Below, piece by piece: positions 40,035-43,753 of a stretch of DNA of 64,000 nucleotides. Below the pieces are notes generated by a model that was given only the letters and a program-made list of their open reading frames with translations, searched no databases and was not told the origin of the DNA. Numbering within the stretch: position 1 is the first letter of the stretch; each line of letters starts with the position of its first letter. The DNA is from an uncultured Bacteroidota bacterium (GTDB taxonomy: Bacteria > Bacteroidota > Bacteroidia > Chitinophagales > Chitinophagaceae): the NCBI GenBank assembly GCA_903903635.1, contig CAIUZK010000142.1, positions 11,037 to 75,036 on the forward strand. Reading direction: 5' to 3'. A program made the translations under genes and the position numbers.

Positions 40035-40495
40035 TGAAAGTAAAAAACCATAAACTTGTTGTGCGGCAGTGGGATAGAAAAATAAGCACCGGCACCTTGT
40101 TACATCCTGTAGAATATGCAGAGGGATGGATACACTCATTGCGATTAACGTTGAATATGTCGCTGAGGCAACTTGGCAACAGAATGGGAATCACACCGCA
40201 AAGTGTACGGGATATACAGCGGCGTGAAAAGGAAGGTACCTTAACTATAAAAACATTAAGGGATGCAGCAGAAGCGCTGGATATGAAACTGGTTTATTCT
40301 TTTATTCCTAAAGATGGGACATTGGAACAAATGATAGACCGAAAGGCGAATGAAATGGCTACAAAGATTGTAAAAAGAACATCGACAACCATGCGGCTGG
40401 AAGATCAGGAAAATACTGATGAAAGGATACATGAAGCAATCATGGAATTAACCGAAGACATAAAAAGAAACATGCCAAAAAAACTATGGGACTAG
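40034..40495 (+). CDS. Mobile mystery protein A (XRE HTH regulator)
   Basis: GWIHSLRLTLNMSLRQLGNRMGITPQSVRDIQRREKEGTLT...TTMRLEDQ...KKLWD. Confidence 0.9.
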   Translation: MKVKNHKLVVRQWDRKISTGTLLHPVEYAEGWIHSLRLTLNMSLRQLGNRMGITPQSVRDIQRREKEGTLTIKTLRDAAEALDMKLVYSFIPKDGTLEQMIDRKANEMATKIVKRTSTTMRLEDQENTDERIHEAIMELTEDIKRNMPKKLWD

Positions 40496-40621: not shown

Positions 40622-41293
40622 ATGAAGCGGCTCATCTGTTTATTGGTTTTTTGCTTGTTTTGGCAAACTGGATTTTGCCAGGGAGGCTGTGCTATTCAGC
40701 TAGATAAAATGAATATCCTTATTTCGGGTATTGACAATCCCATAACCGTCGCAGTATATGATACAAAAGAATCGTCAATATTTTTGACTACTAATAATGG
40801 TAAAATTACAGGAACAGGAGGGCACTGTACAATCAGGCCCGATAGTACAGGTGAGGCAGTAGTAGAAGTTTGGAAAAAGACAACTAAAGGATCACATAAA
40901 GTCGGAGAATCAAAGTTCAGAGTGAGGCGATATCCTGATCCTGTGCTAACATTACAATATAAAACAGGAGGTAAATTGGATGCTGCACTTGCACGTGCCC
41001 AGATTGCACCCGCTGCGAGATGGACTGAATATTATGGAATATGTGCACAGGCTAAAATAACAGGCTTTGCGCTTATAATTTTAAGAGACAATAAATTATT
41101 TTTCATGGGCAGTGCTCATAATTCAAATTCAGTAATATTTAGTGACAATAAAGATGTTGCTCAGGCTATGGAATCACTCATCCCTGGGGATATATTGCTT
41201 TTTTCAGAAATAACCGCTAGGGTGACAGATGGTAAAGAACGCCATTTGCAACCTGCTGAGTTTCTGATAACCGACAAGGACGAAAAAGAATGA
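40622..41293 (+). CDS. GldM C-terminal-domain-like exported protein, paralog 3
   Basis: Signal peptide; LDKMNILISGIDNPITVAV, FRVRRYPDP, PGDILLFSEITARVTDGKERHL, the clearest GldM resemblance of the three. Confidence 0.8.
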   Translation: MKRLICLLVFCLFWQTGFCQGGCAIQLDKMNILISGIDNPITVAVYDTKESSIFLTTNNGKITGTGGHCTIRPDSTGEAVVEVWKKTTKGSHKVGESKFRVRRYPDPVLTLQYKTGGKLDAALARAQIAPAARWTEYYGICAQAKITGFALIILRDNKLFFMGSAHNSNSVIFSDNKDVAQAMESLIPGDILLFSEITARVTDGKERHLQPAEFLITDKDEKE

Positions 41294-41476
41294 GCAGAAT
41301 AATTTCCACACTATGTAATATACAACAAACACACAACTCACAATAATATTTAAACATATTTATTTTAGCCGGAAGAATATTTTGTCAAACAACCTGAAAC
41401 GCAATGCTGGAACGGCTATTATTCTGATGCTGAATTGCTGCTAATTTCACTAATTTAGCACTCAAATTCCATTTAA

Positions 41477-42172
41477 ATGAATAAAGTTGTTGCTGACGCC
41501 GATGAGGCGGTAAAGGATATACCTTCAGGAGCTACGATAATGCTCGGTGGTTTCGGGCTTTGCGGCATTCCTGAAAATTGCATTGCTGCCCTGGTAAAAA
41601 AAGGCATCAATAATCTCACCTGCATCTCCAATAATGCAGGGGTCGATGGTTTTGGCATAGGACTCCTGCTTGAAAGCAAGCAGGTGAAGAAAATGATCTC
41701 TTCCTATGTGGGTGAAAATGCTGAGTTTGAGCGGCAGTTGCTCAGCGGTGAGCTGGAAGTAGAATTAGTACCACAGGGCACGTTGGCTACCCGCTGCATG
41801 GCTACCGGTTATGGTATGCCTGCCGTTTACCTGCTTGCAGGTTATGGCACCGAGGTGGCTGAAGGAAAAGAAGTGCGTAATTTCAACGGCAAGAACTATC
41901 TGCTGGAGTATGCTTTCGATTCCGATTTCGCCATTGTAAAGGCATGGAAAGGCGACCGGACCGGCAACCTTATCTTCCGCGACACTGCCCGTAACTTTAA
42001 TCCCATGATGGCCATGGCCGGCAAGATCACCATTGCCGAGGTAGAAGAACTGGTGGAACCAGGCGAACTGGACCCCAACAACATTCATGTTCCCGGCATT
42101 TATGTACATCGCATTTTTGAAGGTAAGAACTACGAAAAACGTATTGAACAGAGGACGACAAGAAGAAAATAA
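41477..42172 (+). CDS. scoA: 3-oxoacid CoA-transferase subunit A
   Basis: [38 protein letters not shown]. Confidence 0.95.
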
Positions 42173-42733
42173 TGCGACAATGTGGATGAATGCGTTAATG
42201 TGGGGTCTGAATATTATCATTCCTGATTACCTGAAAACCAGCTGATCCATGAAAAAAGACTTTTCAAATAATCCGCTAATAAGGCATGCTGTAGAATTTT
42301 CTATTATGGTAATAGATTATACTGCAATATTGGAAAGTAACAGAAAGTATGTAATAGCAAATCAGGTATTAAGGAGCGCAACATCTATTGGAGCATCAGT
42401 GATGGAGGCACAAAGTGCTGAGAGTAGAGCAGATTTTATACATAAACTTAAGATTGCCGATAAAGAAGCGCATGAGACCAAATATTGGCTTTATTTGTGT
42501 GAACAAACAGATAGGGCCAATTATAGAACTGAACTAAATAATAAACCAGATGAAATCATGAGGCTTTTGAATTCAATTATTCTATCATCAAAAAAAACAG
42601 CTACACCTAATCAATGACAATGATTATGTTCGGTTATTCATGATTTATCTGAAGGTCGAATACTACAACATTTTTAAACTTTAAAATATTACGGGAAGGC
42701 ACATTGCCGCATTTTTTCCACATTATCGCATTA
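42170..42733. mobile_element. Putative four-helix-bundle cassette bounded by imperfect inverted repeats
   Basis: Left arm 42170-42202 TAATGCGACAATGTGGATGAATGCGTTAATGTG; right arm 42700-42733, whose reverse complement is TAATGCGATAATGTGGAAAAAATGCGGCAATGTG. Confidence 0.6.
42249..42617 (+). CDS. Four helix bundle protein (TIGR02436 / 23S rRNA IVP / Avd-like)
   Basis: IANQVLRSATSIGASVMEAQSAESRADFIHKLKIADKEAHETKYWL. Confidence 0.95.
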   Translation: MKKDFSNNPLIRHAVEFSIMVIDYTAILESNRKYVIANQVLRSATSIGASVMEAQSAESRADFIHKLKIADKEAHETKYWLYLCEQTDRANYRTELNNKPDEIMRLLNSIILSSKKTATPNQ

Positions 42734-42740
42734 ATATATT

Positions 42741-43397
42741 ATGGCACTAAACAAAGAACAAATAGCAAAACGTATAGCTCAGGAACTGAAGGACGGTTTT
42801 TATGTTAACCTGGGTATTGGTATTCCTACACTTGTGGCAAACTACATTCCTGAAGGGGTAGATGTGGTGCTGCAAAGCGAAAATGGCCTGCTAGGCATGG
42901 GGCCTTTCCCATTCGAGGGCGAGGAAGATGCCGACCTCATCAATGCAGGTAAGCAAACCATTACCACCATCCCGGGATCAGCATTTTTCGATAGTGCCAT
43001 GAGCTTCGGTATGATACGGGCCGGAAAGGTCGATCTCACGGTACTCGGCGCTATGGAAGTGGCGGATAATGGGGATATTGCCAACTGGAAGATTCCTAAG
43101 AAAATGGTGAAAGGCATGGGCGGCGCTATGGACCTTGTTGCCGCTGCCAAAAACATAATTGTAGCTATGCAGCACACCAACCCAAAAGGCGAGAGCAAGT
43201 TATTGCCGGCATGCACATTGCCACTTACCGGTGTTGGCTGTGTGAAAAAGATAGTGTCTGACCTCGGCGTTTTTGATGTCACTCCCGATGGATTTGTCTG
43301 CATAGAGTATGCTCCCGGCGTTACCATCGAAGAAATTAAGGCTAAAACTGCTGGCAGGCTTACTATAGCCCCAGATGTAAAGGAAATAGCTGTATAA
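42741..43397 (+). CDS. scoB: 3-oxoacid CoA-transferase subunit B
   Basis: VNLGIGIPTLVAN, LQSENG, DLINAGKQ, VKGMGGAMDLV. Confidence 0.95.
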   Translation: MALNKEQIAKRIAQELKDGFYVNLGIGIPTLVANYIPEGVDVVLQSENGLLGMGPFPFEGEEDADLINAGKQTITTIPGSAFFDSAMSFGMIRAGKVDLTVLGAMEVADNGDIANWKIPKKMVKGMGGAMDLVAAAKNIIVAMQHTNPKGESKLLPACTLPLTGVGCVKKIVSDLGVFDVTPDGFVCIEYAPGVTIEEIKAKTAGRLTIAPDVKEIAV

Positions 43398-43753
43398 TGG
43401 AATCTGTAACCATTTACCACAATGCCCGCTGTGGCAAAAGCCGTGGGGCACTCGAAATATTGCAGCAACATAATATTCCCTTTACCATCAGGTGGTATCT
43501 TACCGAGCCATTGAATAAAAATGAATTGAAAGCACTGGTCAAAAAATTGCAGATTCAAACCTCTGGCCTGGTTCGTAAAAATGAATCCTTATATAAGGAG
43601 CAATATGCAGGGAAAGAAATAATCGAAAAAGAGTGGATCAGTATTTTGGCTGAGCATCCGGTACTTATCGAACGCCCTATTGTGGAGACTGCGGACAGTG
43701 CGATTATCGCGAGGCCGCCTGAACTGCTTTTGGAATTTCTGAAACTAAAATAA
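43397..43753 (+). CDS. ArsC/Spx/MgsR family protein
   Basis: IYHNARCGKSR, HPVLIERPIV; TAATG overlap with scoB. Confidence 0.9.
   Translation: MESVTIYHNARCGKSRGALEILQQHNIPFTIRWYLTEPLNKNELKALVKKLQIQTSGLVRKNESLYKEQYAGKEIIEKEWISILAEHPVLIERPIVETADSAIIARPPELLLEFLKLK

Follow-up and report, generated by a model that had tools for sequence, protein, structure and literature searches.

A PF05635 four-helix-bundle gene between inverted arrays of a short repeat unit at the scoA-scoB junction of an uncultured Chitinophagaceae bacterium

Introduction

The closest described relatives of the element studied here are the intervening sequences (IVS) of 23S rRNA, found in Leptospira and Coxiella. In Coxiella burnetii the IVS lies in helix 45, where an S23p open reading frame (ORF), judged to be decaying, is carried in a 28-bp stem with tandem heptamers that is cut by RNase III in vitro (PMC4990558). 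We analyzed a stretch of 64,000 nucleotides, called the window below, from contig CAIUZK010000142.1 of an uncultured Chitinophagaceae bacterium (GCA_903903635.1). In this window a gene for a four-helix-bundle (4HB) protein of the PF05635 family stands between scoA and scoB and is bracketed by two inverted arrays of a short repeat unit, which we call arms. Our best explanation, to which we give about even chances, is an IVS-type 4HB gene cassette that lives in an mRNA operon, with arms flanking a promoterless and terminator-less ORF.

The likeness to the 23S rRNA IVS is extensive. Both hold a PF05635 ORF inside terminal inverted repeats, with a stem of about 28-30 bp and tandem short repeats; neither has a promoter or a mobility enzyme, and in both the host transcript must still function. 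The cassette differs in that it lies at the junction of an mRNA operon (scoA/scoB and, in a further case, rpoB/rpoC) and not in rRNA helix 25 or 45. Its arms abut stop and start codons, its unit is AATGYG at 8-11-nt spacing, and its ORF is under strong purifying selection, whereas the Coxiella ORF was judged to be decaying. Cutting by RNase III is reported in Coxiella, while here it is proposed from the layout by analogy. The ORF-bearing 23S rRNA IVS is therefore the closest described thing, but the cassette lies outside the location by which such IVS are defined.

Heptamer arrays, such as GGGAATC in Xanthomonas and GGGGAYT in Nostoc, resemble the arms in having 7-9-nt units placed up to 50 bp past stop codons in sense or before ORFs in antisense; some form convergent inverted pairs and most are transcribed (PMC4692102). 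No gene family was named for them and they were explained as G-quadruplex formers, whereas the cassette units have no regular G-tracts and their inverted pairs enclose a 4HB gene. PF05635 genes are mentioned in print as residents of cas operons (PMC3936711) and as homologs of Avd (PMC10053308). Avd of diversity-generating retroelements (bAvd, PDB 4DWL) has a homologous four-helix-bundle fold (PMC10053308), but no reverse transcriptase adjoins the cassette, nor does a template or variable repeat. RVT_1 matches in the genome were found only on contigs C57 and C39, none of them near a 4HB gene.

REPIN-RAYT systems and MITEs (miniature transposable elements with inverted repeats) are likewise dispersed intergenic palindromic or repeat DNA whose abundance goes with one matching single-copy gene. 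In contrast to them, the 4HB protein lacks a nuclease or transposase fold, its arrays are tandem and of variable length, and there is no target duplication. We rejected a MITE or insertion sequence because neither a target-site duplication nor multiple near-identical copies in the genome were observed. Integron cassettes also consist of a promoterless single ORF with an imperfect inverted repeat in which structure rather than sequence is shared. Here, however, there is no integrase or attI, the repeat halves flank the ORF, and the cassettes are scattered singly in operons. Our literature search found no paper that joins PF05635 genes with inverted short-repeat arrays.

Anatomy of the scoA-scoB junction

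The original prediction for this DNA described an inverted-repeat cassette with a 4HB gene that fills the scoA-scoB junction. We confirmed the observation, and both coordinates and anatomy were correct. The features, all on the plus strand, are given below.

41477..42172, +, scoA, 3-oxoacid CoA-transferase subunit A (PF01144 E 2e-76, TIGR02429 E 6e-79)
42170..42203, +, left arm, two double units TAATGCGAC-AATGTGGATG-AATGCGTT-AATGTGG with core AATGYG; pairs with the right arm in the minimum free energy (MFE) and centroid folds
42204..42248, +, non-repeat leader from the left arm to the 4HB start codon, without TAnnTTTG
42249..42617, +, 4HB gene, 122 aa, of the 23S rRNA IVS protein / Avd-related family (PF05635, TIGR02436)
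42618..42699, +, non-repeat trailer from the 4HB stop codon to the right arm, without an intrinsic terminator
42700..42735, +, right arm, reverse complement of the left-arm units (CACATT / CGCATT), placed by sequence and fold
42741..43397, +, scoB, 3-oxoacid CoA-transferase subunit B (TIGR02428 E 3e-97)

The left arm reads TAATGCGACAATGTGG-ATG-AATGCGTTAATGTGG through 42203, and its first three bases are the scoA stop codon TAA (42170-42172). The right arm reads GCACATTGCCGCATT-TTTT-CCACATTATCGCATTAAT with 42735 as its last base, and the scoB ATG (42741) follows 5-8 nt past it, depending on the choice of arm end. The arm units are of the AATGCGnn-AATGTGG type. No conservation of the leader was observed among orthologs. 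By ORF and profile search there was no second credible ORF between the arms and, in agreement with the original claim, no transposase or integrase.

The 4HB assignment held as well, since the protein scored above the cut-offs of both PF05635 (E 1.4e-21, 77.1 bits, cut-off 33.8) and TIGR02436 (E 9e-24, 83.8 bits, cut-off 24). The closest solved structure was PDB 2RLD (E 1.8e-23). A motif of the RxxxSxxxNxxE type is known from the helix 2/3 region of the PF05635 family (PMC3936711). We found this motif in the cassette protein as LRSATSIGASVMEAQ, where R, S and E stand as expected and Asn is replaced by Ser; close relatives have SIGANxxEAQ there. No PADLOC defence family matched the protein at E 0.01 or better. 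Among orthologs the dN/dS of the 4HB gene was 0.03-0.055, similar to scoA and scoB, with synonymous sites saturated (dS >1.3 or not computable). Therefore the 4HB protein is functional, and it is, as judged from these ratios, under strong purifying selection.

Orthologous cassettes and the history of the junction

We wanted to see how the cassette is distributed among relatives. The genus sample comprised 53 Flavipsychrobacter genomes, with the source genome designated G000. Close 4HB orthologs (66-75% identity) were detected in five of the other genomes. In four of them (G009, G066, G051, G017) the gene lies in scoA-scoB with AATGYG-type arms, and in the fifth, G061 (L036), arms of the same type surround it at another site. 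A scan of one genome per GTDB species gave nine further scoA-scoB orthologs beyond the genus set, in F. stenotrophus, Taibaiella soli, another Flavipsychrobacter metagenome-assembled genome (MAG), and Chitinophagaceae and Bacteroidota MAGs. The window cassette, the four genus orthologs and the nine further ones form the set that is counted as 15 cassettes below.

The left flanks of these 15 cassettes contained 58 AATGYG units against 2 reversed, and the right flanks 60 CRCATT units against 0 reversed. The first arm unit lay at -4 to +2 nt from the scoA stop codon in 13 of 15, the stop codon being TAA (within TAATG) or TGA (within AATGTGA). For annotation this means that the scoA stop codon in these genomes comes from the repeat itself. 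The last arm unit ended 3-13 nt ahead of the scoB ATG, and the arm-to-arm duplex had a z-score of -3.5 or lower in 13/15 cassettes. Arm unit, orientation and pairing potential have been maintained over a span that would randomise neutral sequence. In G066 a species-specific unit, GGAATCNGA, is present in both arms, which, on sequence grounds, shows that the arms evolve in concert.

We also observed that in the right flank of the G066 locus (L033) the right-arm region is tandemly duplicated, giving two copies of the 48-nt block ATGAGGGAAACCACATTGTCCGATTCCATCACATTAACACATTGAATTT.

The 4HB identities mirror the scoA+scoB tree (G009-G066 92%, G051 about 80% to both, G000 72-75%, G017 66-71%), and therefore vertical descent with repeated loss is the simplest history. 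Filled sites are scattered on this tree and at least five changes are needed. The original prediction had looked to relatives for an empty scoA-scoB site. Among the genus members sampled, about 20 indeed had gene-less spacers, of 8-161 nt and unrelated sequence. CACATT/CGCATT units were still present directly before scoB in G012, G008, G019 and G022, so these four kept right-arm-like units only, and no gene-less member had both arms. G013 shows a clean loss with an 8-nt spacer. In five independent metagenome assemblies the cassette was 100% identical over 620 nt and at the same site, with no strain-level polymorphism among them.

The cassette had been proposed to be a minimal mobile or RNA-level element. 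A recent insertion was rejected because of the agreement between the 4HB and host-gene trees, the saturated dS and the occurrence of the cassette in several genera. It is, by this comparative evidence, an old, vertically inherited resident of scoA-scoB in Chitinophagaceae, as old as the family, which was lost many times and is missing from most Flavipsychrobacter species. The TAAT reported at both cassette ends is present and forms part of the palindromic arm terminus. Its reading as a target-site duplication was rejected because TAAT forms no direct repeat in the orthologs of G009, G066, G051 and G017. Altogether, the proposed architecture and the analogy with IVS were supported, while target duplication and recent mobility were not.

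The PF05635 ORF lies co-oriented between convergent arrays of one unit and fills the gap between the two host genes. We are highly confident that it belongs to a class of such armed 4HB cassettes and that it was inherited and lost as described above.

A different paired element was seen in the gene-less spacers of G004, G023, G010, G024, G002 and G021 (L013, L014, L019, L021, L023, L005). It consists of a small hairpin CCCCTGAAGGGG directly after scoA and of CCCCTTTAGGGG(TTT/ATTTAGGGTTT) directly before scoB, about 100 nt from the hairpin. The scoA-scoB junction seems to attract small structured inserts, as a hot spot would.

Other 4HB cassettes and their arm units

The source genome contained six PF05635 matches; Bacteroides thetaiotaomicron, which served as a control, has the family as well. 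The original prediction expected that other family members in the genome would have inverted flanks, and this was observed: besides the scoAB cassette, four 4HB genes, full or decayed, are directly flanked by convergent inverted arrays, each of another unit.

C221 cassette, arm unit GTAGTAGATAGTCG, between rpoB and rpoC
C172 cassette, arm unit GTTGATAGGTTGAAT
C219 cassette, arm unit GGTAATAGGGTGAAAAG
C187 cassette, arm unit ATTGGAAATTGG, gene frame-broken

The rpoB-rpoC gene (G000:C221:65208-65585; L063 2209-2559, minus strand) encodes 116 aa that match PF05635 with E 5e-39 and, weakly, the bAvd-like PF22296. No two 4HB cassettes of the source genome share arms or internal sequence, and only the short units recur. 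Both arms of every cassette share one unit, and units differ among cassettes. Overall, about 24 of 30 4HB loci in the genus and about 10-17 of 27 order-wide were armed.

The decayed gene at G000:C187:16736-17224 (L064) is left as 89- and 51-aa pieces, with its ATTGGAAATTGG arms intact.

In a tree of 31 4HB proteins the arm-unit labels needed 8 changes, the minimum possible. Shuffled labels needed 21.3 changes on average, and 0 of 200 shuffles were as good. Most of this signal is orthology, but two cases separate the site from the unit. The AATGYG-armed gene of G061 occupies another site and clusters with the scoAB clade at 66% identity. In G029 (L030), from another family of the order, a 4HB gene lies in scoA-scoB with AATTTGAAAAT arms; its protein is closest, at 63% identity, to those of Flavipsychrobacter genes with AATTTGAAAAT arms elsewhere and only 49-52% identical to the scoAB group. 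Therefore one junction was colonised by two cassette lineages. Gene and arm type, as these comparisons show, have moved jointly from site to site over long times.

Such movement is what a DNA-level mobile cassette would produce. According to this explanation the arms are single-stranded DNA hairpins or cruciforms, comparable to integron attC sites or REP/IS200-type hairpins; a recombinase acting in trans inserts and excises gene plus arms at cistron junctions, and RNA pairing is incidental. The joint movement of gene and arms (L036; L030 against L038/L041), the two lineages at one junction, the scatter of filled sites with its five or more changes and the clean loss in G013 all agree with it. 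So do two results given below, the arm mismatches without sense-strand G.U bias and a gene-less AATGCG/AATGTGG hairpin in G017:C7. We nevertheless consider it unlikely. The element lacks a target duplication and TAAT is not conserved. As copies in the source genome share neither arms nor interior, no recent transposition is visible, and the five independent assemblies do not differ in the cassette or its site. We saw no candidate enzyme in linkage with the cassette, the two reverse transcriptases being on other contigs, and arms that differ among cassettes make a single sequence-specific enzyme unlikely. One site was held through saturated synonymous divergence. Finally, arm-less relatives have their own promoter, which ties the arms to life in a host transcript.

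Gene-less arrays of arm units

Arm units also occur outside the cassettes. We found 33 matches of AATGCGNNAATGTGG at 17 loci of the 5.27-Mb genome, with about 0.16 expected and 0 in the reversed control; allowing up to 2 mismatches gave about 25 clusters. Most clusters are tandem arrays of an 18-19-nt double unit that run in one orientation only and have no 4HB gene. Eight gene-less AATGYG arrays start within 22 nt past a stop codon in sense (nine with the left arm of the cassette); a further three stand in antisense, immediately ahead of a start codon. These are the positions of the cassette arms. The four other arm units had 184, 12, 43 and 22 matches elsewhere in the genome (reversed controls 0-3). 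The value of 43 belongs to the C187 unit ATTGGAAATTGG, which occurs at 26 loci though its gene is decayed. All five arm units of the source genome thus have gene-less arrays. In a TRF survey there were 171 strong short-period arrays, 87 of them in the five arm families (arrays were assigned to families by core motif).

Convergent pairs of the same unit within 1.2 kb were limited to the 4HB cassettes, one complex locus on C144 and one spurious match; four of the five non-spurious pairs enclose a 4HB gene. An inverted-pair candidate on C134 was rejected, as one half lies within a coding region.

The C144 locus (G000:C144:18650-20200; L061 2150-3700) has convergent AATGYG arrays around about 1.1 kb without a 4HB gene. 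Its interior contains an opposite-strand DUF3630 ORF and about 200 bp that are directly duplicated, one array included, and a third array stands directly after the asd stop codon. In G017 a gene-less AATGCG/AATGTGG hairpin (L062 1355-1490; G017:C7:165354-165489) was observed directly after a stop codon. Its convergent arrays are separated by about 40 nt, and it is either a cassette that was emptied or a plain hairpin.

The bracketing of the 4HB gene could be a coincidence of two arrays. Short tandem arrays in these genomes would favour the G-rich strand directly past stop codons and the C-rich strand directly ahead of start codons, so that any spacer with a small gene in it would look bracketed. 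The positional rule is known for heptamer arrays of Xanthomonas and Nostoc (PMC4692102), gene-less arrays of the source genome follow it in part, and the genome has about 170 strong short-period arrays. This explanation is already disfavoured and we hold it to be very improbable. It does not account for one unit in both arms of every cassette with different units among cassettes, for the species-specific GGAATCNGA in both arms of G066, or for an arrangement conserved in 15 orthologs. The enclosure of a 4HB gene by four of five convergent pairs and the protein clades that track the unit across sites speak against it as well.

We compared the number of arrays between genomes with and without the matching gene. 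Carriers of the scoAB-type gene had 30, 11, 7, 4, 2 and 1 AATGCGNNAATGTGG matches, own arms removed, while the 47 non-carriers had a median of 0 and a maximum of 14 (one-sided Mann-Whitney U test, p 6e-5). For AATGGCTNAATNGCT, which forms the arms of a second cassette lineage, carriers had 158, 47, 39, 27, 23 and 3 matches and the 47 non-carriers a median of 1 and a maximum of 31 (p 1.2e-4; p 0.002 once 10 own-arm matches per carrier were subtracted).

Such co-occurrence is expected from a protein-plus-binding-site system, in which the arrays are operator-like 4HB sites in DNA or RNA, the pair at the cassette is an autoregulatory copy and arm pairing is irrelevant. Gene-less arrays past stops or before starts would then be working targets genome-wide. 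The unit itself, beyond complementarity, is conserved in both arms of the 15 orthologs (58:2, 60:0) and protein clades track it. All five arm units have gene-less arrays, eight of the AATGYG ones being placed past stops and three before starts, and Avd relatives are nucleic-acid-binding pentamers. We regard this explanation as improbable all the same, because there are genomes with many arrays and no matching gene, array families without any 4HB gene, and one matching gene, that of C187, which is a pseudogene although its unit has 43 occurrences. A pure operator model also does not predict that convergent pairs within 1.2 kb occur almost only around 4HB genes.

Part of these data also weighs against our own explanation, in so far as it has the 4HB protein recognise the unit. 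The co-occurrence statistics over 53 genomes are without correction for shared ancestry. Many arrays without a matching gene were found in G010 (14), G007 (31) and G059 (24). Several array families have no 4HB gene in the genome, for example AGGTTAAA/GGGTAAAG, GTGTTACGTGGCC, AAAGTCGAAAGTA and the 12-mer CTTCTGGTTTTG. A one-to-one mapping of array families to 4HB genes was rejected, at least four families being without a gene.

Predicted pairing and expression signals

The arms had been predicted to pair in the transcript, and our folds agree. In the predicted RNA fold of 42160-42745 a 30-pair stem of the two arms closes the MFE structure and likewise the centroid structure (z -4.96). When the arms were joined by a short loop, the energy was -41.8 kcal/mol compared with -18.3 for shuffles (z -8.0). 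No Rfam family matched in 41300-42760, and neither rRNA nor another Rfam family in 41400-43500. We detected no plus-strand intrinsic terminator in 41300-42760, and no TAnnTTTG, the -7 promoter consensus of Bacteroidota, in the same interval. Without its own promoter motif or terminator the cassette must therefore be expressed from the operon transcript.

In the arm-less sister clade of the scoAB clade TAnnTTTG was present 27-32 nt upstream in 6 of 6 genes, and among armed 4HB genes in 3 of 24 (hypergeometric p about 1.4e-4). Judged from these motifs, the contrast ties the arms to life within a host transcript.

We propose that scoA, the 4HB gene and scoB are made as one transcript, in which the arms would pair into a stem of about 30 bp and loop out the 4HB cistron. 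The stem might then be cut by RNase III, as shown for the gene-plus-stem layout of 23S rRNA IVS. Alternatively, a ribosome that terminates at the scoA stop codon, at the base of the stem, might open it. Cutting or opening would free the scoB start region, so that the operon tolerates the insert. The two mechanisms are not exclusive and would explain why the arms abut the codons. Melting of the stem base by the ribosome would matter because Bacteroidota are not known to use Shine-Dalgarno-led initiation and need start regions free of structure. The 4HB protein would most likely recognise the repeat unit of its own cassette, both within the arms and where arrays occur elsewhere in the genome without a gene.

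What points toward RNA is that neither a promoter nor a terminator belongs to the cassette and its arm-less relatives have their own promoter, that the base of the stem lies exactly at stop and start codons, and that the genome encodes RNase III. Co-transcription, arm pairing and cleavage of the scoAB cassette are what we infer from this. That the arms act as an RNA stem is tentative, with chances slightly short of even. Specific binding of the repeat unit by the 4HB protein is plausible but less likely than not.

Several results count against an RNA stem. The six arm-less genes form one clade and hence one evolutionary event, and the promoter contrast ignores shared ancestry. The ratio of sense-strand G.U to A.C mismatches in the arms was 22:21 in the genus, 8:3 in the order sample and 30:24 combined. 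This is no excess, whereas in RNA helices that are under selection G.U is usually in clear excess. The mismatch test is thus leaning against pair-by-pair RNA selection; pairing may act at the DNA level, or copying rather than pair selection may keep the arms alike. Own-species arms paired only modestly better than arms from different species. The latter also pair because all arms share one unit, which makes this a weak covariation test. In G009 the arm pairing was weak (z -2.3).

A wider reading would join these observations. PF05635 4HB proteins would be sequence-specific readers of their own repeat unit, the gene with its inverted arrays would be a self-maintaining module at cistron junctions and rRNA helices, and gene-less arrays past stops or before starts would be working sites or footprints of lost cassettes. 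Taken jointly, we think this rather unlikely. If true, it would be a new protein-repeat genetic system that needs no transposase. The gene-plus-stem module occurs in ordinary, even essential operons (scoAB, rpoBC). Through the locus three orphan observations come together (IVS elements, the PF05635 family and dispersed arrays), of which the IVS puzzle dates to the 1990s. With this link, stem cutting or opening, unit binding and the effect of cassette deletion can be tested at the bench.

What the locus adds is age at the level of the family at one junction with very low dN/dS, a host stop codon supplied by the repeat, the rpoB-rpoC cassette and two site-independent cases of protein and unit. 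To these come the promoter contrast between armed and arm-less genes, a replicated test of gene and array co-occurrence, and a null result for G.U bias.

Minor observations

Two array families of the source genome were recorded separately. At 14 or more loci (C12:25117-25162, C256:56643-56688, C223:63741-63786) there are 46-nt arrays with four copies of a 12-mer, CTTCTGGTTTTG / AAAACCAGAAGT, in which the third unit is consistently variant; they are unrelated to the 4HB arms. A 14-mer family, GTGTTACGTGGCC-like and without a 4HB gene in this genome, was found at C137:60536-60627, C48:22933-22986, C211:62010-62056, C19:3452-3492 and C225:25049-25088.

Upstream of scoA the window contains two paralogous secreted or lipoprotein-like ORFs of 250 and 223 aa with similar N-termini MKRLIxLL (39181-39933 and 40622-41293). 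Between them lies a gene for an HTH_3 (XRE-type) regulator (40034-40495).

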